Positions 3,403 through 59,680 of a DNA stretch of 64,000 bases are shown piece by piece. Source of the DNA: Rhodospirillales bacterium. Lineage in GTDB: Bacteria; Pseudomonadota; Alphaproteobacteria; CACIAM-22H2. How positions within the stretch are numbered: the stretch's first letter is position 1; every line of letters begins with the position of its first letter. Made by a program: the position numbers and the translations under genes. The stretch is taken from contig JAEUKY010000332.1 in assembly GCA_016794005.1 (NCBI GenBank), positions 5,029-69,028 on the forward strand. The letters run 5' to 3'. A model generated the notes under the pieces. That model searched no databases and had not been told where the DNA came from. It worked only from the letters and a program-made list of their open reading frames with translations.

Positions 3403-4503
3403 ATGTCGATCAAGAACGTTCTCGTTATCTGCGCCGTCGTCGCTGCGACCGTCGTTGCCGGCGAGCTTGGCGCGCGGATCTGGCTGTGGACGCCCAGCAC
3501 GCTCGGCGCCGAGCCGGCCGGCGACAGGCTCGGCAACTCCCGCTATGCCTTCGCGCCCGACGTGCCGGGCGATCTCGTCCCCGGTCAGGATGGCCATTGG
3601 GTCGTGTGGTGGCGCCGCCCCTACCACGTGGTCACGAACAGTCAGGGTTTTCGTTCGCTCGAGGAGCCGCAACCGGGCTTCCGGCAGATCGTGGCGCTCG
3701 GCGATTCGCAGACCTTCGGTCCCTACGTCGCGACCGAAGACACGTGGCCTGCCTGGGTCCAGTCGGAACTCCGCCGGCAGAAGCTGCTTGGCAGGGTCCA
3801 GGTTCATAACGGCGGCGTTTCCGGTTACACGCTCGCCGACGAGCTCGCGTGGCTTCGCGAGAAGGGGATTGCCCTCAAGCCGGACATGGTCTTGCTTGGC
3901 GTCTTCGAGAACGACATTCTCGACTATCGCCGCATCACGACCGGTCGCGGGCTTCGCCCGGTCTCGTCCACGGACGGCCTCGGCGCGATCGCGACCCTCG
4001 CACGCGAACTGCGTACCGGCTTCCTTCGCGATCTCGCGCTCTACGCGCTTGCTGCCCAACTGCGGCGTCAGTGGGAAATGCGTGCGGCCAACATCGATAT
4101 CGTGCGCGGCGAGGGCGATGCCGCGCGCGAGCGGCCGGAAGTCGAAGCAGCCAGACTGAGACAATACACCGAACTCTACGAGCGAGATTTCCGCGAGTTC
4201 GTGCGCCTGGCGAAAGAATCTGGCATTGCCGTGGCCGTCGTCGCCATTCCGTCGCCGAGCGTGCTTGCGGAAGGTCAGACGGCTGAGGTCGGCCCGCTCG
4301 CCGGTCGTCTCAGTCAGGAACTCGGGGTGCCGTTCCTCGACCTGATGCCGACCTTCGCGGCCGTCGAAGATTCGGCGCAGAGATACTATCTTCTCCATTG
4401 GTCCGTCGAGCTCAACGCGCTGACGGGTAATGGCCATCTGTCGCGCGAGGGGCATTACGAGATCGGTCGCCGTGTTGCGGAGTGGCTCGCTTGGCTCGGC
4501 TAG
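3403..4503 (+). CDS. SGNH/GDSL-type hydrolase with an N-terminal membrane anchor
   Basis: IVALGDSQTFG (block I), GGVSGYT (block II), GVFENDI (block III) and GNGHLSREGHYEIG (block-V-like). The start is placed at the ATG before the anchor MSIKNVLVICAVVAATVVAG. The ORF-track start 3343 remains possible. Confidence 0.65.
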   Translation: MSIKNVLVICAVVAATVVAGELGARIWLWTPSTLGAEPAGDRLGNSRYAFAPDVPGDLVPGQDGHWVVWWRRPYHVVTNSQGFRSLEEPQPGFRQIVALGDSQTFGPYVATEDTWPAWVQSELRRQKLLGRVQVHNGGVSGYTLADELAWLREKGIALKPDMVLLGVFENDILDYRRITTGRGLRPVSSTDGLGAIATLARELRTGFLRDLALYALAAQLRRQWEMRAANIDIVRGEGDAARERPEVEAARLRQYTELYERDFREFVRLAKESGIAVAVVAIPSPSVLAEGQTAEVGPLAGRLSQELGVPFLDLMPTFAAVEDSAQRYYLLHWSVELNALTGNGHLSREGHYEIGRRVAEWLAWLG

Positions 4504-5630
4504 CGAGCCGCAACCACGTTGCCGAATAGTTCGATCTGCCGCGCGACGACTTTTGCTTCGTCGTAGAGGTCGCGTGCCCGGACGAGTCCCGCTTCGCCCA
4601 TCCGCTGCCGCAGTACCGGGTCGTCCGCAAGCCGGCCGAGTGCGGCTGCGAGCGCCGCTGGATCGGCGATTGGCACGAGCAGTCCGGTCTTGCCGTCGAC
4701 GATCTCCTCGCGGCTGCCGCGGATGTCGGTCGCGACGACGGGAAGCCCACTCAGCATGGCTTCGATGATCGAGCGTGGCATCCCTTCGCGATGGGAAGGC
4801 AGGACAAAGATATCGGCGGCGCGCATCAGGTCCGGGACGTCCTGGCGGTAGCCGAGAAGGCGTACCCGCGCCGCAAGGACCGGGTCGACGCGCACGGCGT
4901 CGATTGCGGCGTCGATCGGTCCGGCATGGTCGGATGCCAGGCGTTCGCCGGCAATCCACAACTCGGCATCGATCGCGCGCATCGCCGCCAGCAGTTCGGG
5001 ATAACCCTTCTCGGCGACGAGGCGGCCGACCATCAGGATCACCGGCCGGTCAGGCGGCGTTCCGATCTCCGCGCGCACGCGCGCCTTGTCGCCGCCGCCG
5101 GGCCGGAAGCGCGCCGGATCCGAGCCGTTGCCGATCGCGTGGATCGGCCCGCGTGCGAGGCGGAGGCGGCGCGCGCTTGTCGCATCCTCTTCGGCCTGCG
5201 TCATCAGCAGGTCGGTGACGCGTCCGGCTGCCCATTCCAGCCCGACATGCGCGGCGCGCAACGGCCAGGGCATGCGGTCGTGGAAGTAGAAGCCATGCGC
5301 CGTATACACGATCCGCGGCACGCTCGCCCGCCAGGCGGCGAATCGGCCGGCGAGTGCCGCGACCGGCGTGTGGAAATGGACGACGTCGAACCGTTCCTCC
5401 CGCAGCGCCGCGAGGATCGCGCGATGCGTACGCCATAGCGCGAACGGATTCGCCGAGCGACGGATGTCGATGCCGATCACGCGGAAGCCTTCGGCCTCGA
5501 CCTTTCCGGCGAGCTCGCCGCGCGTGCAGGCACCGACGACGTCGTGCCCGGCTTCGCGCAGGCCGCGCATCAGCGGCAGCAGGAAGTGGTAGAGCGTGAA
5601 GTCCACGGCGCAGAGCTGAAGGATCTTCAT
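4500..5630 (-). CDS. Glycosyltransferase family 4 (GT-B)
   Basis: 376-aa ORF with N-terminus MKILQLCAVDFTLYHF. The C-terminal half has FVLPSHREGMPRSIIEAMLSGLPVVATD, an E-x7-E GT4 signature. Confidence 0.85.
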   Translation of the reverse strand: MKILQLCAVDFTLYHFLLPLMRGLREAGHDVVGACTRGELAGKVEAEGFRVIGIDIRRSANPFALWRTHRAILAALREERFDVVHFHTPVAALAGRFAAWRASVPRIVYTAHGFYFHDRMPWPLRAAHVGLEWAAGRVTDLLMTQAEEDATSARRLRLARGPIHAIGNGSDPARFRPGGGDKARVRAEIGTPPDRPVILMVGRLVAEKGYPELLAAMRAIDAELWIAGERLASDHAGPIDAAIDAVRVDPVLAARVRLLGYRQDVPDLMRAADIFVLPSHREGMPRSIIEAMLSGLPVVATDIRGSREEIVDGKTGLLVPIADPAALAAALGRLADDPVLRQRMGEAGLVRARDLYDEAKVVARQIELFGNVVAAR

Positions 5631-5643
5631 GCGCAGGTTTACC

Positions 5644-7575
5644 TCACGCCCAGCGCTTGCGCCATGCCTGAAACATCAGCACGGTCCACAGCCTGTAGGT
5701 CCGGTCCGCGCCGCCCAGATGGGCGCGCCACGCGTGTGCGACCGGGGCCGGATCGAGGATTCCGTCTGCAACGATGGCTGCGGGTGCGAGCAGGTCTTCG
5801 GCCCATTCGCGCAACGGTCCGCGCAGCCATTCGCCGACCGGAACCGCGAAGCCCATCTTGGGCCGTTCGAACAGGTCGCGCGGGACGTATCGCGACAGGA
5901 CTTCGCGCAGGATCCGCTTGCCCTTGCCGCCGTCGACCTTGAGTTCCGGCGGCAGCGTCCACGCATGCTCGACGACGCGATGGTCGAGGAAGGGATTTCG
6001 CGCCTCGAGAGCCACCGCCATCGTCGCGCGATCAACCTTCGTCAGCACGTCGTCCGGCAGGTAGCCAAGCGTGTCGAGAAGCTGCATGCGCGGGCCGAAC
6101 TCCGGAATCGCCCCCGCGATGCCGGGGTCGTCGGCCGGTCCTGGAGCTTCGCGCGCGCCGGGGACCAGCATGGCCGGATCGGGCCACTGACTCACCAGCT
6201 CGCGATAGAGTGCGTGCGCATCGTCCGCTTCCAGCAGTGCCGCAAGTTTCGCCGCCTTCTCGGCCGGCCGCACCGGTCGCCGCGCGGCCGGGAGCGGCCG
6301 CAGGAGCGCCTCGAGGATTCCGGCCGGTGCTGCACGCAGCGCGCATGCGGCAACCCGGCGCAGCCCGTGCGGCAGACGAACGAGCCGTTCGAGCCGGCTT
6401 GCCCAGACATGCCGGTTGTAGCCCGCGAAGACCTCGTCGCCGCCGTCGCCGGAAAGCGCCACCTTCACATGCGCGCGCGTCATCCGCGCGACGAGGTAGG
6501 TCGGGATCTGCGAAGCGTCGGCGAAGGGTTCGTCGTAAATCTCGGGCAGGTTCTGGATGACGTCGCGCGCGTGCGACGGGTCGACGTGCAGTTCCGTGTG
6601 GTCGGTGCCGAGATGGGCAGCGACGGCTGCAGCGTGACGCGCCTCGTCATAGTCGGTGCGGTCGTAGCCGATCGTGAAAGTGCGCACCGGGCGGCTGCTC
6701 TGCGCCTGCATCAGCGCCACGACCGTCGACGAATCGATGCCGCCGGACAGGAAGGCGCCAAGCGGCACGTCGGCGACCATGCGTCTTGCGACGGCGTCGA
6801 GCAGCAGCTTGTCGAGCGTCTCGACGGTGCTTCCGGGATCGGCGGGGGCGTTCCAGGACGCTCGGCCGCGCTCGGCTACCGCACGGGCGGACCAGTAGGT
6901 CTCCGTCGAAGGTTCGCTTCCTTCGCGCCACACAAGCAGCGTGCCCGGCAGCAGTTTGCGAGACTCCTTGTAGATGGTCGCTGCGCCGGGCACGTTCGCG
7001 TGCCGGAAGTACGAGACAAGCGCATCCCGGTCGATCGACGGGGCGAATCCGGGTGCGGCGCGCAGCGCCTTCAGTTCCGAACCGAAGACGAGGCGCGTTC
7101 CGTCGCAGGCGTAGTAGAGCGGCTTGACGCCCAGCCGGTCGCGCACGAGCCAGAGCGAGCGCTCTTTCCGGTCCCAGAGCGCTATCGCGAACATGCCGAC
7201 GAGCCGCGCCAGCGTTTCGCGCACGCCCCAGCGCGCGATCCCCTCGATCATCACCTCGGTGTCGGATGTGCCACGGAACTGCACGCCGACCCGTACAAGT
7301 TCGGCGCGCAGATCGCTGAAATTGAAGATCTCGCCGTTGTAGGTGACGACCCAACGCCCGTCGGAAGAGTGCATCGGCTGCACGCCGGTCGGCGAAAGGT
7401 CCACGATCGCGAGGCGGCGGTGTGCGAGCGCAATGCCGGCGGCCGCATCTGTCCAGATTCCGTCGCCGTCCGGCCCGCGATGCGCGAGCACGTCGTTCAT
7501 CAAGCGCACCGCGGCGACGAGTGGCTCGTCGGCGAGCCTCGAGCGGCGGTCGAGCAATCCGGTGATGCCACACAT
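5644..7575 (-). CDS. asnB: Asparagine synthase (glutamine-hydrolysing) family amidotransferase, glycan-cluster paralog
   Basis: The start is trimmed to MCGITG (nucleophile Cys directly after Met; cat at 7573-7575 on the plus strand). It has the PP-loop LSGGIDSSTVVALM and is 643 aa after trimming ORF 5644..7677. Confidence 0.85.
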   Translation of the reverse strand: MCGITGLLDRRSRLADEPLVAAVRLMNDVLAHRGPDGDGIWTDAAAGIALAHRRLAIVDLSPTGVQPMHSSDGRWVVTYNGEIFNFSDLRAELVRVGVQFRGTSDTEVMIEGIARWGVRETLARLVGMFAIALWDRKERSLWLVRDRLGVKPLYYACDGTRLVFGSELKALRAAPGFAPSIDRDALVSYFRHANVPGAATIYKESRKLLPGTLLVWREGSEPSTETYWSARAVAERGRASWNAPADPGSTVETLDKLLLDAVARRMVADVPLGAFLSGGIDSSTVVALMQAQSSRPVRTFTIGYDRTDYDEARHAAAVAAHLGTDHTELHVDPSHARDVIQNLPEIYDEPFADASQIPTYLVARMTRAHVKVALSGDGGDEVFAGYNRHVWASRLERLVRLPHGLRRVAACALRAAPAGILEALLRPLPAARRPVRPAEKAAKLAALLEADDAHALYRELVSQWPDPAMLVPGAREAPGPADDPGIAGAIPEFGPRMQLLDTLGYLPDDVLTKVDRATMAVALEARNPFLDHRVVEHAWTLPPELKVDGGKGKRILREVLSRYVPRDLFERPKMGFAVPVGEWLRGPLREWAEDLLAPAAIVADGILDPAPVAHAWRAHLGGADRTYRLWTVLMFQAWRKRWA

Positions 7576-7619
7576 GAGGGATCGGGATTCCCGCTTCAGA
7601 ACCGGCCAGTCAAGCTTCA

Positions 7620-7636
7620 CGTTCATGACATGAACG
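7620..7636. promoter_or_regulatory. Perfect 8-1-8 palindrome CGTTCATG-A-CATGAACG (contains GTTC-N7-GAAC); candidate operator
   Basis: Read directly from the sequence. It lies 45 nt upstream of the asnB start codon (minus strand), in the AT-rich divergent intergenic region 7576-7758. Confidence 0.5.
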
Positions 7637-7699
7637 GCGGCGTCTGTCGACGATAAACCGCAGTTCTGGAATCTCAATAAGATATTGTTTTAATTTAAT

Positions 7700-7714
7700 G
7701 TTCAAATTCCGAAC
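7700..7714. promoter_or_regulatory. GTTC-N7-GAAC inverted repeat (GTTCaaattccGAAC); candidate operator
   Basis: Read directly. It is the second of three identically spaced GTTC-N7-GAAC sites within about 120 bp. Confidence 0.45.
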
Positions 7715-7718
7715 ACGA

Positions 7719-7750
7719 TTGACGTTCACCCAATGAACAGGGTATATACT
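7719..7750 (+). promoter_or_regulatory. Candidate sigma70-type promoter for the wHTH regulator (TTGACG-N18-TATATA), giving a near-leaderless transcript
   Basis: TTGACG lies at 7719-7724 and TATATA at 7743-7748. The ATG at 7759 has no Shine-Dalgarno-like sequence in between. The third GTTC-N7-GAAC site (7724-7738) overlaps the -35 element and spacer. Confidence 0.4.
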
Positions 7751-7758
7751 CAATTTCG

Positions 7759-8436
7759 ATGAATGAGACTCCGTCCACGAAATTCGATCGCGAGTCGTCC
7801 GAGTTGCTGCTCGGCGTCCTGTCGGTGGTCGAGCGCAATTCGAGCGTCACCCAGCGCGGCATGTCGAACCAGTTGGGAATCGCGCTCGGACTTGCAAATG
7901 CCGTACTCAAGCGTTGCGTACGCAAGGGTCTGATCAAGATTTCGACCGCCCCGCTCAACCGCTACGCCTACTACCTGACGCCGACGGGGTTCAGCGAGAA
8001 GGCGCGCCTGACGGCCGAGTACTTGCGCATCTCCTTCGATCTTTTTCGCAATGCACGGCGCCAGTACAACGAGATTTTCGAGGCCCTCGCCGCGCGCGGG
8101 CTCACGCGCATCGTACTTGTGGGGGCTTCCGAACTCGCGGAAGCGGCCCTGCTATCGGCACGCGAGACCCCGGTCGAGGTCGTCGGCTTCGTCGATACGG
8201 CGCGTGCGGGTGAAGACTATCTCGGCCTGCCGGTTGCCGGCTCGCTTGCCGCCTTCAGGGGCCAGTTCGACGCGGTCGCGATGTGCGACGTGCGCGATCC
8301 GCAGATGAACTATATCGCGGCACTCGACGAGGCGGCCGCTCTCCAGATCGATCCGCGGCGCGTTGTCGGCCCCGCGATCCTGCGTCTGCGGCCGCCGGCA
8401 CCGACCGAGGTCGCGGAACTGGCTGGTGGGTCGTGA
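7759..8436 (+). CDS. Winged-helix (MarR/EPS-associated type) transcriptional regulator fused to a C-terminal Rossmann-like domain
   Basis: The N-terminal ~110 aa (LLLGVLSVVERNSSVTQRGMSNQLGIALGLANAVLKRCVRKGLIKI...YYLTPTGFSEKARLTAEYL) resemble EPS-associated MarR-type wHTH proteins. The C-terminal part (RIVLVGASELAEAALL...VVGFVDT...YLGLPVAGSL) resembles the nucleotide-binding-like N-domain of polyprenyl-phosphate sugar transferases. Confidence 0.6.
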   Translation: MNETPSTKFDRESSELLLGVLSVVERNSSVTQRGMSNQLGIALGLANAVLKRCVRKGLIKISTAPLNRYAYYLTPTGFSEKARLTAEYLRISFDLFRNARRQYNEIFEALAARGLTRIVLVGASELAEAALLSARETPVEVVGFVDTARAGEDYLGLPVAGSLAAFRGQFDAVAMCDVRDPQMNYIAALDEAAALQIDPRRVVGPAILRLRPPAPTEVAELAGGS

Positions 8437-8936
8437 GCGGCTGGTTCGTCGTCCATACCCAGCCTTCTTCGGAACTGAGGGCGGAGGCCAATCTCCGCCG
8501 CCAGGGCTACGAGACCTATCTGCCCCTATACCGGCGGCGTCGCTCGCACGCCCGGCGCATCGAATTCGTCGATCGGCCGCTGTTTCCCCGTTACCTATTC
8601 GTCCGCTTCGATCCGTCGGCCGACCGCTGGCGCCCGATCCTCGGAACGTTCGGTGTCTGCGGGCTGGTGCGGTTCGGTGACGTTCCGGTCCCGGTTCCGG
8701 CAGGGATCGTCGATGCCCTGCGCGCCAGCGAAGCGGCGCGGACGTTCGACGATCCGGTCTCGCCGATGCGCAATCTCGGCGTCGGCGCGCAGGTCCGCGT
8801 CATCGCTGGCCCCTTTGCCGATCTGGTCGGCAAGTTCAAGGCTCTCGCAGACATGGAGCGGGTCGTCGTCCTGCTCGACCTGCTGGGGCGCGAAGTATCC
8901 GTCCGTCTGTCCGAGAGGGCGGTCGCGGTGGCCTAG
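8433..8936 (+). CDS. NusG-paralog transcription antiterminator (RfaH/NusG-SP-like)
   Basis: The GTG start overlaps the upstream TGA (GTGA). The N-terminus is NGN-like (WFVVHTQPSSELRAEANLRRQGYETYLPL...RPLFPRYLFVRF) and the C-terminus is KOW-like (GAQVRVIAGPFADLVGKF). Length is 167 aa. Confidence 0.7.
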   Translation: MSGWFVVHTQPSSELRAEANLRRQGYETYLPLYRRRRSHARRIEFVDRPLFPRYLFVRFDPSADRWRPILGTFGVCGLVRFGDVPVPVPAGIVDALRASEAARTFDDPVSPMRNLGVGAQVRVIAGPFADLVGKFKALADMERVVVLLDLLGREVSVRLSERAVAVA

Positions 8937-9007
8937 GCCGCCGGCCCCGAAAGGGCGGGCGTTTCGCGAAGATATCGAAAAGCCGGGCGACATGCGGTCA
9001 CCCGGAG

Positions 9008-9019
9008 TGCGGTAGCCTG
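9008..9019 (+). promoter_or_regulatory. ops-like element TGCGGTAGCCTG (10/12 match to enterobacterial GGCGGTAGCGTG) in the operon leader
   Basis: It sits on the sense strand, about 70 nt after the RfaH-like stop and about 50 nt before the GTG start at 9073. Positional support only; a chance match is not excluded. Confidence 0.4.
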
Positions 9020-9072
9020 CCCGGATTTCGCCAGCAGATCCGCTTCACGTCAGAACGGAAAGTCCCGTCCAG

Positions 9073-10197
9073 GTGCAGTTCATCGACCTTCAGTCCCAGC
9101 GCGCGCGTCTGGGTACCGCTCTCGAGGACGCGATCCTGCGCGTCGTGCGCAGCGGCCAGTACATTCTCGGTCCCGAAGTCGCCACGCTCGAGCGTCAACT
9201 CGAAGCATTCTGCGGTGCGCGTCACGCGCTGACCGTCGCCAACGGCACCGATGCGCTTGCGCTCGCGTTGATGGCGTTCGGTGTGAAGGCCGGCGACGCC
9301 GTACTTGTCCCGTCGTTCACCTTCGCGGCGACCGGCGAAGTCGTCGTCTGGTTCGGCGCGACGCCGATCTTCGTCGACTGCCTGCCGGACACCTTCAACA
9401 TCGATCCGGCCAGCATCGAAGCGGGCATCGCGACCGCGAAGCGGCTCGGCCTGCGGCCCATCGGCGTCATCCCGGTCGATCTTTTCGGACTGCCGGCGGA
9501 TTACGACGCGATCGAAGCGATCTGCGCTGCGAACGCCATGTGGATTCTTGCCGATACCGCGCAGGGCTTCGGTGCTACCTACAAGGGACGGCGCACCGGC
9601 TCGATCGGACGGGTCGCGGCGACGTCGTTCTTTCCGGCGAAGCCGCTCGGCTGCTACGGCGACGGCGGCGCCATCTTCTTCGAAGACGATGCGCTGCTCG
9701 AACCACTCCTCTCGCTCCGCGTGCACGGCCAGGGCGTCGATCGCTATGACAACGTCCGGATCGGCATGAACGGCCGAATGGACACAATCCAGGCGGCCGT
9801 CCTGATCGAGAAGCTCAAGATCTTCCCGGACGAAATCGCCGCGCGCAACCGGATCGCGGAGCGCTATTCCGCAGCGCTTGAAAAGCACGTGATCGTTCCG
9901 CGCATACCGACCGGCCTGACGAGCGTCTGGGCCCAGTACACGATCCGCGTGCCTGACGGAAGGCGCGATGCGGTTGCCGCGAAACTCAAGGAGGCGGGTA
10001 TCCCGTCTGCGATCTACTACGTCAAGCCGATGCACAGGCAGACCGCGTACTCGGAATATCCGGTCGCCGCGAACGGGTTGCCGGTAAGCGACGTGCTCGC
10101 AGGCGAGGTGTTGAGCCTGCCGATGCATCCGTATCTGTCCGAAGCCGATCAGGATCGCATCGCGTCGACCGTGCGCGCGGCGCTCGAGGCGCGATAG
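9073..10197 (+). CDS. DegT/DnrJ/EryC1-family PLP-dependent sugar aminotransferase, WbpE-like
   Basis: MQFIDLQSQ...GQYILGPEVATLERQLEAFCGARHALTVANGTDAL and SFFPAKPLGCYGDGGAIF closely resemble WbpE-type 3-oxo-sugar aminotransferases. The start codon is GTG, with GGAAAG about 10 nt upstream. Confidence 0.85.
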   Translation: MQFIDLQSQRARLGTALEDAILRVVRSGQYILGPEVATLERQLEAFCGARHALTVANGTDALALALMAFGVKAGDAVLVPSFTFAATGEVVVWFGATPIFVDCLPDTFNIDPASIEAGIATAKRLGLRPIGVIPVDLFGLPADYDAIEAICAANAMWILADTAQGFGATYKGRRTGSIGRVAATSFFPAKPLGCYGDGGAIFFEDDALLEPLLSLRVHGQGVDRYDNVRIGMNGRMDTIQAAVLIEKLKIFPDEIAARNRIAERYSAALEKHVIVPRIPTGLTSVWAQYTIRVPDGRRDAVAAKLKEAGIPSAIYYVKPMHRQTAYSEYPVAANGLPVSDVLAGEVLSLPMHPYLSEADQDRIASTVRAALEAR

Positions 10198-30675: not shown

Positions 30676-31667
30676 ATCCGACCGAAACGACGAAGGATAC
30701 CGGACCGCGCATTTCGATCGTGGTGCCGGTCTTCAACGAGGAGGGCAACGTCGAGCTGCTGTGTGCACGCACGGTAGCGGCGATGGAGAGCTTCGGCGTG
30801 CCGTGGGAGATGATCGTCGTCGACGACGGCAGCCGCGACCGGACCTTGCGTCACCTTACCGCCGCAGCCGCGCAGGAACCGCGCATCCGTGTGATCTCGC
30901 TGCGTCGCAACTGCGGCCAGACCGCGGCAATGGCCGCAGGCATTGATCATGCGCAGGGCGAGGTCATCGTGCCGATGGACGGCGACCTGCAGAACGATCC
31001 GGGCGACATCCGTCGACTCGTCGAGAAGCTCGACGAAGGCTACGACGTCGTTTCCGGCTGGCGGCGGGACCGCAAGGACGCCGCGATCAGGCGCAATTTC
31101 GTCAGCCGCGTGGCGAACCGGCTCATCAGCTGGATCAGCGGCGTGCGCCTGCACGACTATGGCTGTTCGCTGAAGGCCTATCGCCGCGACGTGCTGCAGC
31201 ACGTGCGCCTCTACGGCGAGATGCACCGGTTCATACCGATCTATGCGAGCTGGTACGGCAGCAGGGTGACCGAGCTCGAGGTAGCGCATCACCCGCGGGT
31301 CTCCGGGAATTCGAAGTACGGCCTCGAGCGCATCTTCAAGGTGCTGCTCGACCTGATGATGGTGCAGTTTCTGGCGCGCTACCAGACCAAGCCGCTCTAC
31401 GTCTTCGGATTCATGGCGCTGACGATGTTCGCGGGCGCGTTCGTGGCCGGAACGGTGGCGCTGGTGCTGAAGCTGTTCTGGTCGATCTCGTTCATCCTGA
31501 CGCCGCTGCCACTGCTCGTCGTGATGTTCTTCGTGACCGGCGTCATCTGCATGCTGATGGGCATCCTCGCCGAGATGCTGATGCGCGTCTATTTCGAGTC
31601 CCAGGGCAAGGCGATCTACGATATCGCCGAACTCGTCAATTTCAGCGACCGGGAACCGCGCGTCTGA
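30672..31667 (+). CDS. GT2 polyprenyl-phosphate glycosyltransferase (ArnC/GtrB/Dpm1-like) with C-terminal TM helices
   Basis: The start overlaps the upstream stop (ATGA). ISIVVPVFNEE, VVDDGSRD, PMDGDLQNDP (DxD) and two C-terminal hydrophobic helices (FMALTMFAGAFVAGTVALV, LPLLVVMFFVTGVICMLMGIL) are present. Confidence 0.85.
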   Translation: MNPTETTKDTGPRISIVVPVFNEEGNVELLCARTVAAMESFGVPWEMIVVDDGSRDRTLRHLTAAAAQEPRIRVISLRRNCGQTAAMAAGIDHAQGEVIVPMDGDLQNDPGDIRRLVEKLDEGYDVVSGWRRDRKDAAIRRNFVSRVANRLISWISGVRLHDYGCSLKAYRRDVLQHVRLYGEMHRFIPIYASWYGSRVTELEVAHHPRVSGNSKYGLERIFKVLLDLMMVQFLARYQTKPLYVFGFMALTMFAGAFVAGTVALVLKLFWSISFILTPLPLLVVMFFVTGVICMLMGILAEMLMRVYFESQGKAIYDIAELVNFSDREPRV

Positions 31668-33556
31668 TGTGTGGAATCGCCGGATTCGCGGGCGGTATCG
31701 GCGCGACCGAAGCGCCGGCGGTGCTGCGCGCGATGACGGCCGCGATCGCGCATCGCGGGCCGGACGGCGACGGATTCTGGTCGGATCCCGCGGCGGGCGT
31801 GCATCTGGGGCATCTGCGCCTGGCGATCATCGACCGGTCGGGCGGCTATCAGCCGATGTGGGATGCCGGCGAGACGGTCGGCGTCGTCTTCAACGGCGAG
31901 ATATACAACCATCGCGAACTCCGTGCCGAGCTTGAGACAGCCGGCCACCGGTTCCGGTCGGCTGGTTCCGACACCGAGGTGCTGATCCACGGCTGGCGCG
32001 AATGGGGCGAAGGCCTGTTCGCGCGGCTCAACGGAATGTTCGCCTTCGCGCTCTTCGACCGACGCACGGCGGAACTGGTCCTCGCGCGCGACCGGTTCGG
32101 CGAGAAGCCGCTTTACTGGCACGCGCGCGACGGGTTCGTCGCGTTCGCCAGCGAACTGACGGCACTTGTGGCGCATCCCGCCGTGCCCCGGGTTGCCGAT
32201 CGTCGCGCGCTCGCGAAGTTCCTCGCGCACGGATTCTTTCCGGCGCCGAACACGGCACTCAAGGACGTGCGCAAGCTGCCTGCGGGCCACTTCCTGCGAA
32301 TTCCCGTTGCGGGTCGGACGGACCCGACGCCGCGTGCTTATTGGCGCTTCGAGGTGCGTCCGGACGGCGCGCTGGCGCAGCGGCCTGCCGACGACCTTGC
32401 GGCCGAACTGCGCGACCTGCTCGGCCGTGCCGTCCGCCGGCGTCTCGAAAGCGAGGTACCGCTCGGATTCCTGCTTTCGGGCGGCGTGGACAGTTCGGCG
32501 GTCGTGGCGCTGGCGGCGGGTACGCCCGGGCTTCGGCAACCGCAGACCTTCGCGATGGGCTTCGCCGAACCTTCCTACGACGAAAGCGGATGGGCGCGTG
32601 CCGTCGCGGCGGCGGTTGGCAGCAAGCATGCCGAGGAGATCTGCGACCTTGCGGCCGCGCGTGACGAGCTGCCGGGACTGCTCGCGCGCCTCGACGAGCC
32701 GATCGCCGATCCGTCGATCCTGCCGACCTACCAGGTCTGCCGGCACGCGCGCCGGAGCGTGACGGTCGCGCTGTCCGGCGACGGCGGCGACGAGCTGTTC
32801 GCAGGATACGACACGTTCCGCGCGCTCGGTCCGGCCCGGCTCTACCGCACGCTGGTGCCGCGCGGGCTCGATCCGCTGTTCGCCGCGGCCGCCGGCATGC
32901 TGCCGCGCAGCGACGCGAACATGAGTTTCGATTTCAAGATGCGGCGCGCGTTGCGCGGTGCCGCGTTCCCGGCCGAGCTGTGGAACCCGGTCTGGCTCGG
33001 CCCGCTTGGCCCGGACGAGATATCCGACATGATGTCGGCGCCGGCGGACCCGGAGGATCTCTATGCCGAGGCGCTGGCGGCCTGGCGGGGGTCGGAGGCA
33101 GAGGGCACGACGGATCGGACGCTCGAGTTCTATACGCGCTTCTATCTGTCCGACGGCATCCTCGCGAAGACCGATCGGGCGTCGATGCTGAACTCGCTGG
33201 AGCTGCGTGCACCATTCCTCGATCCGGACGTCGCCGATTTCGCGGCCCGGCTGCCGGCCTCCCTCAAGCTGCGCGGCGGGACCGGAAAGTGGCTGCTGAA
33301 GCATGCGCTGCGCGGAATCATTCCGGACGACGTGCTTGCGCGGCCTAAGAAGGGCTTCGGGATTCCGGTTGCGGCCTGGCTGCGCGACCTGACGCCTCCC
33401 GCATCGGACGGTTCCGCCGAAGACGCATGGTTCGCACGGCTCTGGCACGAACATGGCGCCGGCCGCCGGGATGGACGCAACGCGCTCTTCGCGTGGCTGT
33501 CGATGCGCTACTGCCCCGTTCTGGCGCGGCAGGCCGCCGCATCGGAAGCCGCGTGA
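31667..33556 (+). CDS. asnB: Asparagine synthase (glutamine-hydrolysing) family amidotransferase, second paralog
   Basis: MCGIAGF N-terminus, LSGGVDSSAVVALA PP-loop, 629 aa. The ATG shares one nt with the upstream TGA (TGATG). Confidence 0.85.
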   Translation: MCGIAGFAGGIGATEAPAVLRAMTAAIAHRGPDGDGFWSDPAAGVHLGHLRLAIIDRSGGYQPMWDAGETVGVVFNGEIYNHRELRAELETAGHRFRSAGSDTEVLIHGWREWGEGLFARLNGMFAFALFDRRTAELVLARDRFGEKPLYWHARDGFVAFASELTALVAHPAVPRVADRRALAKFLAHGFFPAPNTALKDVRKLPAGHFLRIPVAGRTDPTPRAYWRFEVRPDGALAQRPADDLAAELRDLLGRAVRRRLESEVPLGFLLSGGVDSSAVVALAAGTPGLRQPQTFAMGFAEPSYDESGWARAVAAAVGSKHAEEICDLAAARDELPGLLARLDEPIADPSILPTYQVCRHARRSVTVALSGDGGDELFAGYDTFRALGPARLYRTLVPRGLDPLFAAAAGMLPRSDANMSFDFKMRRALRGAAFPAELWNPVWLGPLGPDEISDMMSAPADPEDLYAEALAAWRGSEAEGTTDRTLEFYTRFYLSDGILAKTDRASMLNSLELRAPFLDPDVADFAARLPASLKLRGGTGKWLLKHALRGIIPDDVLARPKKGFGIPVAAWLRDLTPPASDGSAEDAWFARLWHEHGAGRRDGRNALFAWLSMRYCPVLARQAAASEAA

Positions 33557-56620: not shown

Positions 56621-58813
56621 TCAGAATCCGCGGAGCGAAAGCTCGCCGAGATTCTTCAGCGCGATCCTGAACAGCAATGCCGTGTCGGGCGGAATCTCGG
56701 CCCGGCCGATGTTGCGGCGGGTCAGGTCGAGCCCCCATACGAAGCAGTCGTCCTCGTAGATGAGCGTTCCGCCGGCCACGAGGATGCCGTCGTCGGCGCC
56801 GAGCTGCTGGATGACGCGCCCCTGGAAGCGCCAGTACTCCGAGACGACGGCCGTCACCGCATGGCCGAGCTGGTTGATCGAGGCCTGCGCGGTCGGCTGC
56901 AGGGCGCGATCGATGCGCACGTGCGAGAGCGAGTAGCGCAGCGCCGCCGGTCCGAGCGACATCGAGCTGACCGATCGCAGCAGTTCGCGGTTGGCGCTGT
57001 CGACCTGGAAGCGGTACGTCGCCGAAACCCACGTATGCGGGGCCGCGTTGATGCGGCCGACGAAATCCGAGAACCGGGAATCGATCCCCGAGCCCGCGCT
57101 TGCGGCGGACTCCGTCCGCGTGCGGAACTGCTGGCCGAGGAATACCGAGAAACGCTGGCCGTACACGTTCGAGTATTCCGTGTTGGCGCCGTAGACCGAC
57201 CGTACGCCGCTCTCGAGGCGATCGAAGCCGGAGAAGCGGTTCCGCCGGAACAGGTTCGTATCGTCGAACGTGAATCCGAGGCTGTCCTCGTTGGGCAGGT
57301 AGGCCTGGTTGCCCATGTTCGGCGCGACGTAGACCGCGGCGATGGGTTCGACGAGCATTCGGCCCGACGGCATCTGCCGGACGAGCGGATAGCGCCAGCC
57401 GATCGAGACCTCCGGCATCACGCGCGCGTTCGTGCCGTCTTCTTCCGGACGGAATTCGCGCGTCGTCGAGCCGATGCGGCTCGCGTGGAACAGGTCGCCT
57501 TGAACGGACGCGCCGAGCGAATAGACCTCGCCGCTGTTGGTCGTGTAGGGCAGGAGCCAGCTCGCGACCATCGAGCCGCGCTGCGCGCGCAGACCCTGGC
57601 TGCGGTAGATCGACGCCGAATTGGCCTCGAACGCGAAGCGCCCGCCGGAAGCTCCCGGTTCGCCATACCAGCTGTACTCCGCCGCAGGCAGGACGAGCGG
57701 CGCGGTCGACATGCTGTCTTCCGGGCGCAGGCCCTGGTAGCTGAAGGCGTTCAGGGCGGCGAATCCGCGATCGCGGAAGCCTTCGGTATAGAGCCGGCTT
57801 TCGAGCACGTTCTGGTCGAGGAACGCGAAACGCTGGCGCAGGCGGTAGCGGTCGATGAAGGTCTTGTCCGTCGCGCGCGAACCGTCGAAACCCCATCGCC
57901 AGTCGTTGTCGATATCGAAATTGCCGCGGCCGCTGATGTAGCCGCGATGGTCGCCGAAGCCCTCGCCCTCGCGTCGCGTATTCATGAACGCGCCGCGATA
58001 CTCGATCTGGCCGTTGCGGGCGCGCTCGCGGTATTCGCCGGTCAGCATCGGATAGTCGTTCGACAGGGCGATCGGGGTGATCGTCGCGTCGGCCGACGGG
58101 CCGATCACCCAGTAGTAAGGGACGCCGACCATCGTCCCGACTTGCGACGAAGAGCTGACATCCGGCATCAGGAAGCCGGACTTTCGTTTCTCCGAGCCGT
58201 CCGGGTGCGACATGTAGGGCGTATACGCGACGGGTACGCCGCCGAACTCGATCCAGGCGTTCTTGTAGGTGACTTCCTTTTCGGCCTGGTCGTGCGTGAT
58301 GCGTTCGGCGCGGATCTGCCAGATCGGCGCGCGCGTCGGGTTGTCGGCGCAAGGCTGGCAGGGGCTGTAGGTCGCGCGCCGCATGACCGTGCGCGTGCCG
58401 TCCGAACGCCGCGCGGTCACGGCTGCGAAGCGCGACTGGTCGGCCATCAGCGCGCGGAAGTTCTGCGCGATGCCGTCGCGGAAATCGCCCGTCAGCTCGA
58501 GGAAATCCGAAAAGACGACGGTGCCGTCGGCGTCGACCAGACCGACATTTCCCGTGGCGGTGATGACGCCGGACCGGCGGTTATAGGAAAGCGAGTCCGA
58601 CTTCAGCAGCATCTCGCCTTGCGTCACCTCCACTTTTCCGGTCGCGGTCACGATCCCGAACTCTTCGTCGGACGTGACTTCGTCGGCGGAAATCATCGAC
58701 GGCAGGTCGGGCTTGGGCTGCGCGCCGGCGGACTCCGGCACCGCCGCCGCCAGAACGACGGCGACGACGCCGAAGACGGCGCAAATTACCCGGATGATTG
58801 GTGGCGTCGGCAT
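56621..58813 (-). CDS. lptD: LPS-assembly outer-membrane protein LptD (OstA)
   Basis: 730 aa with signal peptide MPTPPIIRVICAVFGVVAVVLAAAVPESAGA. It has an OstA_N-like N-domain (ADEVTSDEEFGIVTATGKVEVTQGEMLLKSDSLSYN) and a long beta-barrel region ending in an aromatic residue (RGF). Confidence 0.9.
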   Translation of the reverse strand: MPTPPIIRVICAVFGVVAVVLAAAVPESAGAQPKPDLPSMISADEVTSDEEFGIVTATGKVEVTQGEMLLKSDSLSYNRRSGVITATGNVGLVDADGTVVFSDFLELTGDFRDGIAQNFRALMADQSRFAAVTARRSDGTRTVMRRATYSPCQPCADNPTRAPIWQIRAERITHDQAEKEVTYKNAWIEFGGVPVAYTPYMSHPDGSEKRKSGFLMPDVSSSSQVGTMVGVPYYWVIGPSADATITPIALSNDYPMLTGEYRERARNGQIEYRGAFMNTRREGEGFGDHRGYISGRGNFDIDNDWRWGFDGSRATDKTFIDRYRLRQRFAFLDQNVLESRLYTEGFRDRGFAALNAFSYQGLRPEDSMSTAPLVLPAAEYSWYGEPGASGGRFAFEANSASIYRSQGLRAQRGSMVASWLLPYTTNSGEVYSLGASVQGDLFHASRIGSTTREFRPEEDGTNARVMPEVSIGWRYPLVRQMPSGRMLVEPIAAVYVAPNMGNQAYLPNEDSLGFTFDDTNLFRRNRFSGFDRLESGVRSVYGANTEYSNVYGQRFSVFLGQQFRTRTESAASAGSGIDSRFSDFVGRINAAPHTWVSATYRFQVDSANRELLRSVSSMSLGPAALRYSLSHVRIDRALQPTAQASINQLGHAVTAVVSEYWRFQGRVIQQLGADDGILVAGGTLIYEDDCFVWGLDLTRRNIGRAEIPPDTALLFRIALKNLGELSLRGF

Positions 58814-58966
58814 CGGTCGGCGAGGTCGAAATCTCTATTTTTCTCAAGATTTTCAGATACTTAGAAGAATATTCGGCTCATTATAGCGACGGGCAGGCGG
58901 AAAGCCATCTGATAAATGCCGTGCGGCGGTGCTGCGGGCATTCATCCGCCGGAACCAACCTGCTAT

Positions 58967-59680
58967 ATGGACACCCGATTCACACGACTTGCCGGACCGC
59001 CCGAATTGCAGCTTCCCCTTCGCCTTTCACCGTCGATCCTGGCGGCCGATTTCGCCGATCTCGGCAACGAGGTCCGGGCGATTTCGGCGGCGGGCGCGGA
59101 TTACATCCACGTCGACGTGATGGATGGGCATTTCGTTCCGAATCTGACCATCGGGCCGGCCGTCGTCAGGGCCCTGCGGCCGCACACCGACAGGCCGTTC
59201 GACGTGCATCTGATGATCTCGCCTGTCGATCCCTATGTCGCGGCCTTCGCCGAAGCCGGTGCGGACATCATCACCGTGCATCCGGAAGCGGGGCCGCACG
59301 TGCATCGCACGCTGCAGCTCGTGCGCGGCCTCGGCAAGCGCGCGGGGATCGCGATCAATCCGGGCACGCCGGTCGAGTCCGTTTTCCCGCTGCTGCCCGA
59401 CGCTGATCTCGTCCTCGTCATGTCCGTCAATCCGGGCTTCGGCGGGCAAGGCTTCATTCCGGGCGCGCTCGACAAGATCGCCGCCCTGCGCGCGCGCATC
59501 GACGCCCTCTGCGCCGGAACGGAGCGGCGCATCGATCTCGAGGTCGACGGCGGCATCAATCCGCAGACCGCCGCGCGCGTGCGCGCGGCCGGCGCCGACG
59601 TCCTCGTCGCGGGAACGGCCGCGTTCGCGGGCGGGCGCCCGCGCTACGAAGCCAATCTGCGCGCGCTGCGCGGGGCCTAG
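58967..59680 (+). CDS. rpe: Ribulose-phosphate 3-epimerase
   Basis: SPSILAADFADLGNEV...GADYIHVDVMDGHFVPNLTIGP, VHLM, MSVNPGFGGQGF and EVDGGIN are present. The start is trimmed to MDTRF (58967). Confidence 0.9.
   Translation: MDTRFTRLAGPPELQLPLRLSPSILAADFADLGNEVRAISAAGADYIHVDVMDGHFVPNLTIGPAVVRALRPHTDRPFDVHLMISPVDPYVAAFAEAGADIITVHPEAGPHVHRTLQLVRGLGKRAGIAINPGTPVESVFPLLPDADLVLVMSVNPGFGGQGFIPGALDKIAALRARIDALCAGTERRIDLEVDGGINPQTAARVRAAGADVLVAGTAAFAGGRPRYEANLRALRGA

Follow-up and report, generated by a model that had tools for sequence, protein, structure and literature searches.

The 64-kb stretch of DNA analyzed here, referred to below as the window, contains an intergenic gap of exactly 183 nt (7576-7758) that separates a gene for an AsnB-type glutamine amidotransferase from the gene for a wHTH regulator, which is followed by a gene for an RfaH-like protein, an ops-like element and a co-directional glycan cluster. 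The features of this locus are as follows.

4500-5630, leftward: GT4 gene beyond asnB
5644-7575, minus strand: AsnB-type glutamine amidotransferase gene, with a product starting MCGITG at 7575
7621-7635, no strand: site 1, GTTC-N7-GAAC, GTTCATGACATGAAC, with a perfect 8-1-8 palindrome, CGTTCATG-A-CATGAACG, around it (7620-7636)
7650-7677, minus strand: weak leftward promoter candidate TTGAGA-16-TATCGT, from a consensus scan only and of low confidence
7700-7714, no strand: site 2, GTTCAAATTCCGAAC, with one mismatch to GTTCA-N5-TGAAC
7719-7748, plus strand: proposed sigma-70-type promoter of the regulator-rfaH operon, with -35 TTGACG (7719-7724), an 18-nt spacer and -10 TATATA (7743-7748)
7724-7738, no strand: site 3, GTTCACCCAATGAAC, the candidate promoter-embedded operator, at about -31 to -17
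7759-8436, plus strand: regulator gene (225 aa), encoding an N-terminal wHTH domain (residues ~16-100), a long helix and a C-terminal CoA-binding-type Rossmann-like domain (~115-210)
8433-8936, plus strand: RfaH-like NusG paralogue, whose GTG start (8433-8435) overlaps the regulator stop codon TGA (8434-8436)
9008-9019, plus strand: ops-like element TGCGGTAGCCTG in the gap between rfaH and DegT, within the conserved block GTCACCCGGAGTGCGGTAGCCTG (8997-9019)

The gap has a G+C content of 44.8% and holds the G+C minimum of the window (39% in 150 nt, with 49% for the next lowest stretch). The initial annotation had singled out this AT-rich region and located in it the three GTTC-N7-GAAC repeats and the 8-1-8 palindrome, all of which we find at the same positions, although the G+C content that it assumed (~68%) is above the measured window mean of 66.1%. 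Its estimate of fewer than one chance site in 64 kb compares with 1.03 core matches expected, and its view that the clustering is not random was borne out. Five core matches are present in the window, a number that none of 100 shuffles reached, and the three within the gap compare with a mean of 0.005 over 20,000 dinucleotide-preserving shuffles of the gap itself. AT-rich DNA does make GTTC and GAAC commoner, yet not one of the 20,000 composition-matched shuffles contained even two sites, and about 250 independent loci from genomes and metagenomes have kept the motif; the reading as chance matches favoured by the composition of the gap is refuted by these two results and has a probability close to nil. 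The remaining two core matches in the window (24598 and 31439) lie within ORFs and lack the extended GTTCA/TGAAC consensus. With one mismatch to GTTCA-N5-TGAAC allowed, sites 1-3 are the only matches in the 64 kb, and the two-mismatch matches are all either coding or without the flanks. The three repeats are real and far from random.

The asnB start codon is 45 nt away from site 1, whose centre lies 103 nt from that of site 3; site 2 is 24 nt upstream of site 3, its centre near -48 of the proposed promoter. Two other readings of the palindromes were rejected: RNA hairpins, because site 3 precedes the probable transcription start, the N5 centre lacks self-complementarity in relatives and 4-5-bp arms are too weak, and restriction or methylation sites, because the sites are limited to the promoters of one gene family. 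An Rfam search of 7400-9200 gave no match, so no known RNA motif explains this region.

As the initial annotation had noticed, site 3 overlaps a TTGACG-N18-TATATA promoter candidate that ends just ahead of the regulator gene, with the ATG (7759) 10 nt past the -10 hexamer. The palindrome of site 3 fills the 18-nt spacer between -35 and -10, and this geometry is fixed across relatives, with the consensus TTGAC-GTTCAyggCGTGAAC-GcGgTA. The arrangement TTGAC-GTTCA-N5-TGAAC-N4-TA was found at 63 sites in the genome loci and the window; in 62 aligned modules, the T, T, G, A and C of the -35 element are each conserved in 60-62, and the T and A of the -10 element in 60 and 59, respectively. The conserved form, TTGACG-N18-TAnnnn, falls within the 16-18 nt expected between sigma-70-type hexamers. 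A simple consensus promoter scan had omitted TTGACG/TATATA, as fits its demand for T at position 6 of the -10 hexamer, where TATATA ends in A. The near-leaderless transcript predicted earlier is consistent with the window and its close relatives L001-L003, in which 9-10 nt separate the -10 element from the ATG and there is no Shine-Dalgarno sequence, but it is not a family trait, since the leaders of most relatives are 20-140 nt long.

The whole 30-nt block is conserved as a unit, with TTGAC and TA at fixed distances, which would also be expected if the block were simply an unusual promoter (e.g., one read by an alternative sigma factor) with an incidental dyad and neither repressor nor activator. 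We consider this highly improbable, as distal copies of the site retain both GTTCA/TGAAC arms without the TTGAC and TA flanks, making the palindrome itself the conserved unit, and as both arms show full and equal conservation, for which a one-way promoter element would have no need. Site 1, too, lacks these flanks and hence is no TTGAC/TA-type promoter in its own right, and yet it forms a perfect 17-nt palindrome. In addition, TTGACG with GnTA fits the housekeeping promoter type of Alphaproteobacteria, given for Caulobacter as TTGaCgS / GCtANAWC. Upstream partners of the spacer site are variable: 75 of 175 unique promoter modules carry a second site 21-29 nt upstream, 24 nt being the second commonest spacing, and because the tandem spacing varies in this way, no single cooperative geometry holds.

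The motif was followed in the genome loci with their flanks, in metagenome contigs, in the 64-kb window, and in 100 kb of plasmid pTAD1, and it is linked near-obligately to one regulator family. Beyond this DNA, there may be distant members of the regulon or sites unconnected with glycan genes. Among 65 genome loci encoding homologues of the regulator (36-70% identity), 63 carry the core motif just upstream of the homologue gene, generally at ~25-200 nt, with two further off (170-197 and 286 nt), and the motif is nearly absent from the rest of these loci. A 64th locus (L059) has a one-mismatch copy upstream of the regulator gene; L065, also counted among the 65, is not a true homologue. These loci span several alphaproteobacterial orders, together with loci labelled Binataceae and Acidobacteria; L008 (Tagaea sp., OZ245864.1) and L053 (OY970069.1) belong to complete genomes. 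Perfect GTTCA-N5-TGAAC sites occur at 3.9 per kb upstream of the regulator genes and at 0.005 per kb across 390 kb of flanking DNA, a ~770-fold difference. A motif-first scan of metagenomes with the pattern TTGACGTTCA-N5-TGAAC-N4-TA gave 124 occurrences, nine of them at contig ends; a regulator homologue begins within 400 nt downstream in 94 of the 115 informative cases. The remaining 21 include at least 15 that stand before glycan or cassette genes (RfaH, AsnB, DegT, Gfo/Idh/MocA, carbamoyltransferase, cytidylyltransferase, FkbM, GT1, PhyH, and B12-radical-SAM) or share a contig with a regulator gene. The same module is present in a cultured relative, Chelatococcus daeguensis TAD1 (regulator WP_063188699.1), on pTAD1; in the 100 kb of this 535-kb plasmid that were scanned, the regulator pair was accompanied by two isolated one-mismatch sites and nothing more. 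L003 has a duplicate of the module ahead of a gene inserted there, which shows that the module is portable. The reading of the sites as putative operators of the adjacent 225-aa wHTH protein, as the initial annotation had proposed, is strongly supported by this linkage and by the near-invariant TTGAC and TA at fixed distances. Since the third site lies within the regulator's own promoter, autoregulation is predicted, and comparative genomics strongly supports this part of the proposal too.

Four single-domain MarR_EPS genes on Roseobacter plasmids are preceded by GCGTTCA-N4-TGAACG, which has the same half-site with a spacer shorter by 1 nt, although this is a small sample of covariation because the four examples come from related plasmids. 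Co-occurrence alone does not identify the binder, and another trans-acting factor, either global or LexA-like, could bind the palindromes with the wHTH gene as one of its targets. The GTTC-N7 spacing does resemble the LexA box of Alphaproteobacteria, which is a direct repeat, GTTC-N7-GTTC. All of the sites here are inverted rather than direct repeats, however, and GTTC-N7-GTTC does not occur in the 64-kb window, and the SOS box was rejected on these grounds. A separate factor of any kind appears improbable given the linkage to one gene family across orders, even phyla, and plasmids, the change in site spacing with the architecture of the adjacent regulator, and the nature of the non-regulator targets, which are glycan or cassette genes (at least 15 of 21), often on a regulator-bearing contig.

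The regulator family comprises at least 2736 database matches at E ≤ 1e-5, and its members share invariant residues in the wHTH region, in keeping with the invariant half-site. The wHTH nature of the protein had been recognized earlier; the second, sensor-like domain had been missed. Its best NCBIfam match is TIGR04176 (MarR_EPS), at 61 bits versus a cut-off of 88 (E 9e-17) and over residues 16-102 only. The generic wHTH model PF13412 passes (27.9 vs 21.9 bits), while the Pfam MarR models PF01047 and PF12802 are not reached, the latter scoring 18.3 bits against a gathering score of 27. In the full-length AlphaFold model, the wHTH domain has low confidence (pLDDT 50-60), and only the C-terminal domain is usable, after re-modelling, when this extra domain is modelled confidently. 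A PDB sequence search with the family profile gave no meaningful match. Because structural comparison of the C-terminal domain gave marginal matches (E 6e-4 to 2e-2, TM ~0.55-0.59) and the domain's glycine-rich nucleotide motif is degenerate (V-G-A-S-E-L-A), a ligand is not assured, and the domain may serve oligomerisation only.

Neither the motif nor the regulator family is described in the papers that our literature search found, and the search yielded no experimental work on MarR_EPS or on the group of the window regulator. The two groups share a homologous wHTH domain (47% identity over 75 residues to a Sulfitobacter plasmid protein), a position at the head of polysaccharide clusters, a CGTTCA half-site upstream, and an ops-like element nearby. 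However, MarR_EPS proteins are single-domain and about 105-120 aa long (112-122 aa on the plasmids), whereas the window regulator has 225 aa and an extra Rossmann-like domain; the operator spacer is N4 for the former and N5 for the latter, and the ops element of the four plasmid examples precedes the regulator gene, within its leader, rather than following rfaH. A classical autorepressor of the MarR family is E. coli MarR acting on marO. Such autorepressors resemble the proposed system in their dimeric wHTH fold, short palindromic operators with at least two sites over their own -35/-10 region, a divergent neighbour, and relief by ligand. Unlike them, the window regulator does not reach the Pfam MarR models, would sense through a separate C-terminal domain rather than the cleft between dimerisation and DNA-binding lobes, and is encoded together with an antiterminator.

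The redox-sensing Rex repressors have the same order of domains, an N-terminal wHTH followed by a C-terminal CoA-binding-type Rossmann domain in ~210-225 aa, and palindromic operators rich in TTCAC/GTGAA, and fold comparison picks out, among others, RSP of the Rex family (3wg9; TM 0.57-0.59, E 0.017), a likeness at the level of the fold group only. By contrast, the window regulator has no PF06971 match, no PDB sequence match and a degenerate version of the NAD(H)-binding GxGxxG motif, and its context is glycan synthesis rather than respiration or fermentation. The Rex box is TTGTGAA-N4-TTCACAA; the half-sites of the window sites, GTTCAy-N3-rTGAAC, are in the opposite orientation. The nucleotide-sensing "DUF" (PF13727, CoA_binding_3) of WbaP and other large phosphoglycosyl transferases belongs to the same fold group (WbaP 8t53_A, TM 0.59) and likewise occurs in glycan pathways, and some members of the regulator family have weak PF13727 and PF02629 matches, but the similarity is marginal (structure E 6.5e-3; Pfam E at best 0.005-0.013), and the domain in the window is fused to a DNA-binding domain, not a membrane enzyme. 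In WbaP, this domain has UMP, UDP, and UDP-sugar as ligands and provides the dimer interface (PMC10942596).

Directly beyond the regulator gene lie the RfaH paralogue and the ops-like element, both of which the initial annotation had overlooked. The overlap of the rfaH start with the regulator stop codon points to one operon with translational coupling, and an RfaH paralogue directly follows the regulator in ~45 of the 65 genome loci and in most metagenome matches. Its NGN domain (PF02357) passes (70 vs 22 bits), but the RfaH equivalog model TIGR01955 scores 123.2 bits against a cut-off of 144.5, and we therefore refer to it as an RfaH-like paralogue rather than a curated equivalog. The ops consensus is a 12-mer, GGCGGTAGnnTG, on the non-template strand upstream of RfaH targets; TGCGGTAGCCTG agrees with it at 9 of 10 specified positions, on that strand and ahead of the first biosynthetic gene, DegT, at 9073. 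The block GTCACCCGrACTGCGGTAGCATGG follows the regulator or rfaH on the same strand in more than 40 of the 65 loci. RNAalifold found no covariation for a hairpin upstream of ops, only the invariant block. A co-directional nonulosonic-acid glycan cluster of ~25 kb extends beyond ops, and because no other promoter-like site was found between the regulator promoter and ops, the regulator promoter probably drives these genes too. The comparison indicates that a putative regulator-rfaH-ops control cassette stands at the front of sugar-coat gene clusters in numerous uncultured Alphaproteobacteria; its range extends from Rhodospirillales to the loci labelled Binataceae and Acidobacteria, plus plasmids.

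Specialised NusG paralogues whose genes lie within the operons they act on, such as UpxY (Bacteroides), TaA (Myxococcus), and LoaP (Bacillus) present a similar picture, with an RfaH-like gene opening a long polysaccharide operon and a recruitment element downstream, although the UpxY systems use UpxZ trans-inhibitors rather than an autoregulated wHTH protein. The one pertinent finding of the literature search is that an RfaH cluster, CL4, adjoins an HTH regulator at the COG level, according to the part of PMC7593976 that deals with it; the partner regulator, operator, promoter geometry, and ops position that are defined here and travel together do not appear in that part of the article.

We think it likely that the repeats are operators of a dimer of the adjacent two-domain regulator in a circuit of autorepression, ligand relief, and RfaH/ops read-through. 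A dimer would bind each palindrome through (C)GTTCAy half-sites whose centres are 10 bp apart, one helical turn, so that the recognition helices would enter successive major grooves on one face. At site 3, the regulator would exclude RNA polymerase and thus repress its own gene; binding is inferred from sequence comparison, and repression only from the position of the site. A second dimer at site 2, the predicted upstream partner operator 24 nt away, would stabilise binding at site 3, as might one at site 1 (103 nt). The TTGACG/TATATA promoter would drive the regulator and the overlapping rfaH, and probably the glycan genes further on. A small molecule at the C-terminal CoA-binding-type Rossmann-like domain would free the regulator from DNA, and after the onset of transcription the RfaH paralogue, translated from the regulator mRNA, would be recruited at ops and carry polymerase through the long operon.

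The same protein and sites could also serve an activator or a dual regulator, in which case autoregulation would be positive and the glycan operon would come on in a switch-like manner, either by MerR-type realignment of -35 and -10 across the spacer or by a dimer at -48 that recruits RNA polymerase. The promoter could depend on an activator, because its spacer is slightly long (18 rather than 17 nt) and only TA, the first two bases of the -10 element, is conserved. In 43% of the modules there is an upstream site with its centre around -48 to -55, where activators typically bind, and some MarR-type exopolysaccharide regulators do activate, including ExpG/WggR of Sinorhizobium meliloti. We nevertheless regard activation as unlikely. 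MerR promoters have 19-20-nt spacers with the dyad centred in the spacer, whereas here the dyad centre is at ~-24, shifted toward the -35 element and overlapping its last base, and since the -35 is a near-perfect TTGACG, sigma-factor recognition should need no help. Moreover, 57% of the modules have the spacer site only, and the site of the short MarR_EPS relatives lies directly behind a TATATG-like box, a position that would block transcription.

The operator set may have asnB as a second target, with site 1 predicted to be a distal or auxiliary operator that would act near it. The initial annotation had both divergent units under control of the sites, a proposal that is supported only in part. 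In favour of this, a site equivalent in position to site 1 is kept by asnB in the alignment of L001, L002, and L003, and AsnB recurs as a target, its genes elsewhere (on other contigs) lying directly behind the module or within the operon. On the other hand, no conserved leftward promoter was found: the 7650-7677 candidate, which would set site 1 at ~+8 to +22 of the asnB transcript, is not kept in the L001-L003 alignment. The divergent asnB arrangement is itself conserved only in the closest relatives (L001-L010).

Outside enteric bacteria and Bacteroides, little is known about the regulation of surface-glycan clusters, which produce O-antigens, capsules, and nonulosonic-acid glycans. For this locus, sequence alone yields an operator consensus, (C)GTTCAy-N3-rTGAAC(G), with its exact place inside the promoter, and a candidate cognate regulator family (at least 2736 database matches at E ≤ 1e-5) that has no solved relative and is now tied to an RfaH-like gene and the accompanying ops site. 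The module also offers a compact regulated promoter part. Overall, these features provide a testable model for how many Alphaproteobacteria may switch on long glycan operons, and cultured strains such as Chelatococcus daeguensis TAD1 and Caenispirillum bisanense JCM 14346 are suited to a direct test. More speculatively, and with rather less than even probability, the family may be a new class of one-component sensors that read a nucleotide/nucleotide-sugar or CoA/NAD-type pool and adjust operon transcription to it, and the module a self-contained and horizontally mobile "ignition cassette" of repressor, antiterminator, and recruitment site for any surface-glycan cluster. If the C-terminal domain does sense a nucleotide-sugar, precursor supply would be linked to transcription of the pathway.

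The three GTTC-N7-GAAC inverted repeats described in the initial annotation are present in the window, part of a metagenome-assembled Rhodospirillales genome, at 7621-7635 (site 1), 7700-7714 (site 2) and 7724-7738 (site 3), and site 1 does lie inside a perfect palindrome, CGTTCATG-A-CATGAACG, at 7620-7636. The sequence that carries them, 7576-7758, is the exact intergenic gap between an AsnB-type amidotransferase gene, which starts (MCGITG) at 7575 on the minus strand, and the 225-aa open reading frame of the putative regulator, which starts at 7759 on the plus strand. As had been noted, this AT-rich gap has the lowest G+C content of the window (39% in 150 nt, next lowest 49%), where the mean is 66.1%; the second-lowest stretch, at about 58771-58920 (48.7% in 150 nt), lies close to where the 58916-59680 ORF begins. 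Chance, already considered very improbable, is ruled out as the origin of the three repeats, as dinucleotide-preserving shuffles of the gap (n = 20,000) contained a mean of 0.005 sites and never two. Across the whole window, five core matches were observed against 1.03 expected, and the remaining two, at 24598 in an amidohydrolase ORF and at 31439 in a GT2 ORF, are without the A and T of the extended consensus. An Rfam search of the region around the sites gave no match. The inverted arms, and the lack of any direct repeat in the window, exclude a LexA box.

The regulator begins with a winged helix-turn-helix (wHTH) domain (PF13412, above threshold), and its best NCBIfam match is TIGR04176 ‘MarR_EPS’, which it reaches with 61 bits, below the cut-off of 88. 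Modeled alone, the approximately 120 residues beyond the wHTH were confidently predicted to form a Rossmann-like domain (pLDDT 92.5), whose top structural neighbors are the CoA-binding-domain proteins 1iuk and succinyl-CoA synthetase alpha (E about 6e-4 to 1e-3), with further matches to WbaP (8t53, TM 0.59) and the Rex-family repressor RSP (3wg9, TM 0.57-0.59). A sequence search of the PDB found no similar chain. By their membership criteria, the regulator falls outside TIGR04176, the Pfam MarR models and the Rex family, from which it differs in its two-domain architecture, its own predicted operator and its putative coupling to an antiterminator. In kind, the system nonetheless reads as a classical autoregulated wHTH operator system.

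Scanning one genome per species, we found 65 loci with a relative of the regulator (36-70% identity), including one (L065) that matches the C-terminal domain only and is not a true relative. The proposal that the sites are operators of the adjacent wHTH protein is strongly supported by this comparison: the core motif is upstream of the regulator gene in 63 of the 65 loci, nearly always about 25-200 nt from its start, and is near-absent from the other 6 kb of each locus; a 64th locus, L059, has a copy with one mismatch. The density of perfect GTTCA-N5-TGAAC palindromes is 3.9 per kb over the 250 nt preceding the gene and 0.005 per kb over 390 kb of flanks. Alignment of the promoter-proximal copies by their motif gave the consensus gcTTGAC-GTTCAyggCGTGAAC-GcGgTAg, in which the T, T, G, A and C are each kept in 60-62 of 62 modules, the T at +19 in 60 and the A at +20 in 59. 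With TTGAC and TA fixed around it, the palindrome therefore fills the 18-nt spacer of a proposed TTGACG/TAnnnn promoter, and the promoter-embedded layout first proposed for site 3 recurs across the aligned relatives. TTGACG with GnTA agrees with what has been described as the housekeeping promoter type of Caulobacter. In distal copies, both arms are retained and the TTGAC and TA flanks are missing, so the repeated unit is the palindrome, not the promoter. A second site occurs 21-29 nt upstream in 75 of 175 unique modules, most commonly at 27, 24 or 28 nt (site 2 of the window belongs to the 24-nt class), while a third, 92-103 nt upstream, is rare and common to the window and L001-L003, among the closest relatives, where it adjoins the divergent asnB.

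The adjacent regulator is the predicted binder of the palindromes on three grounds: the motif-regulator linkage, which persists across orders, phyla and on plasmids; the invariance, family-wide, of wHTH-region residues, matching the invariant half-site; and a change of operator that tracks protein architecture. On Roseobacter plasmids (L187-L190), four single-domain MarR_EPS genes, whose wHTH is 47% identical to that of the window regulator, are preceded at ~85 nt by GCGTTCA-N4-TGAACG, in which the half-site is unchanged and the spacer is shorter by one nt, in a small sample (n = 4) of related plasmids.

For an assumed transcription start about 7 nt after 7748, site 3 would span about -31 to -17, with the center of site 2 near -48 and site 1 near -127. 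Because a wHTH dimer bound in the spacer and touching the -35 would exclude RNA polymerase, we favor autorepression that is lifted when a ligand binds the C-terminal domain. The WbaP domain, a related fold, binds UMP, UDP and UDP-sugars and forms a dimer interface (PMC10942596); as the similarity to it is marginal, any ligand proposed for the regulator is a guess. It is possible that the regulator is instead an activator, given the 18-nt spacer, the weakly conserved -10 and a site at -48, a typical activator position. Site 1 may repress asnB or help looping; a consensus scan and comparison of the window with L001-L003 revealed no conserved leftward promoter for asnB. In the window and L001-L003, the ATG lies just 9-10 nt beyond the -10 and no Shine-Dalgarno sequence is present, and therefore the near-leaderless mRNA suggested earlier is predicted for this clade; it does not extend to other relatives, which have leaders of 20-140 nt. 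Nothing in this mechanism is surprising in principle.

The regulator stop (TGA, 8434-8436) overlaps the GTG start (8433-8435) of an RfaH-like NusG paralogue in a shared GTGA (8433-8436), an overlap suggesting that translation of a transcription factor is coupled to that of an antiterminator. The paralogue scores 123 bits against TIGR01955 (cut-off 144.5), with its NGN domain above threshold. Relevant features of the window are as follows.

Features of the regulator locus and glycan cluster
5644-7575, minus strand: AsnB-type amidotransferase, divergent
8997-9019, plus strand: conserved 23-nt block holding the ops-like element
9008-9019, plus strand: ops-like element TGCGGTAGCCTG, in the gap between rfaH and DegT
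31667-33556, plus strand: AsnB-type amidotransferase, in the operon

The element at 9008-9019 fits 9 of 10 specified positions of what we take to be the E. coli ops consensus, GGCGGTAGnnTG. More than 40 of the 65 loci have the block GTCACCCGrACTGCGGTAGCATGG downstream of the regulator or rfaH, in the same orientation; in it RNAalifold detected invariance only and no covariation. In about 45 of the 65, the gene immediately downstream of the regulator is the RfaH paralogue. The conserved unit therefore runs from the promoter with its embedded operator through regulator, RfaH paralogue and ops to the glycan genes. The interval from rfaH to ops yielded no promoter-like site, which fits read-through from the operator-controlled promoter without proving it. 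Downstream of the rfaH stop and ahead of ops are two G+C-rich inverted repeats (8941-8965 and 8983-9005), one of them scored as terminator-like on the minus strand, and many relatives also have a hairpin directly 3' of the rfaH stop; candidate roles are an attenuator, a processing site or none. In L187-L190, an ops-like GGTGCGGTAGCC(G/A)TGG (GGTGCGGCAGCCATGG, one mismatch, in L190) occurs ~45 nt after the palindrome, within the regulator gene's own leader, with no adjoining rfaH gene. One RfaH cluster adjoining an HTH regulator was reported previously (Wang et al., 2020; PMC7593976); in the portion of that article available to us, no description of operator, promoter or ops placement was found.

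Rightward of rfaH lies a long nonulosonic-acid glycan cluster, ~25 kb and co-directional (9073-33556, plus strand), with genes almost all on the plus strand to about 33.5 kb. It encodes DegT, PseB, PseC, a radical-SAM/SPASM protein, a Gfo/Idh/MocA oxidoreductase, GNAT, NeuB and a CMP-sugar cytidylyltransferase, followed further along by a second DegT, a formyltransferase, methyltransferases, GT2 and the second AsnB, whose ATG shares sequence with the stop codon of the GT2 gene before it. Leftward are AsnB, GT4 and a Wzy-type polymerase or ligase.

To avoid circularity, the DNA pattern alone, TTGACGTTCA-N5-TGAAC-N4-TA (17 specified bases), was also scanned against a metagenome collection, giving at least 124 occurrences on at least 120 contigs. 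Among the 124 matches listed, 94 have a regulator homolog (39-71% identity) within 400 nt downstream on the same strand, nine are at a contig end and 21 have no regulator behind them. At least 15 of these 21 precede glycan or cassette genes or share their contig with a regulator gene; the genes behind them include those for RfaH, AsnB, DegT, Gfo/Idh/MocA oxidoreductases, carbamoyltransferase, cytidylyltransferase, FkbM methyltransferase, GT1, PhyH dioxygenase and a B12-radical-SAM enzyme. In L003 (800-2743), a second full promoter with two operators (sites 820 and 844) precedes a 594-aa ORF without a Pfam match, an insertion that separates asnB from the regulator. A cultured strain, Chelatococcus daeguensis TAD1, has the module on plasmid pTAD1 (L186; NZ_CP018096.1, 424928-425717), heading a GDP-fucose (gmd-fcl) and ABC-transporter glycan cluster where rfaH is absent. 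A lone site elsewhere on pTAD1 (L191, 41979-41993; GTTCATTACATGAAT, one mismatch), in an AT-rich gap between genes for a methyltransferase and an ABC-transporter substrate-binding protein (putative iron-uptake operon), is probably the box of a different regulator.

Overall, the comparative evidence for the operator model is unusually clean. Cultured strains allow a direct test of the model, and C. daeguensis TAD1 offers a practical experimental system. The motif-first associations and the L003 duplicate identify the element as a regulated promoter that is portable and reserved for these glycan clusters, with this regulator family as its near-obligate companion.
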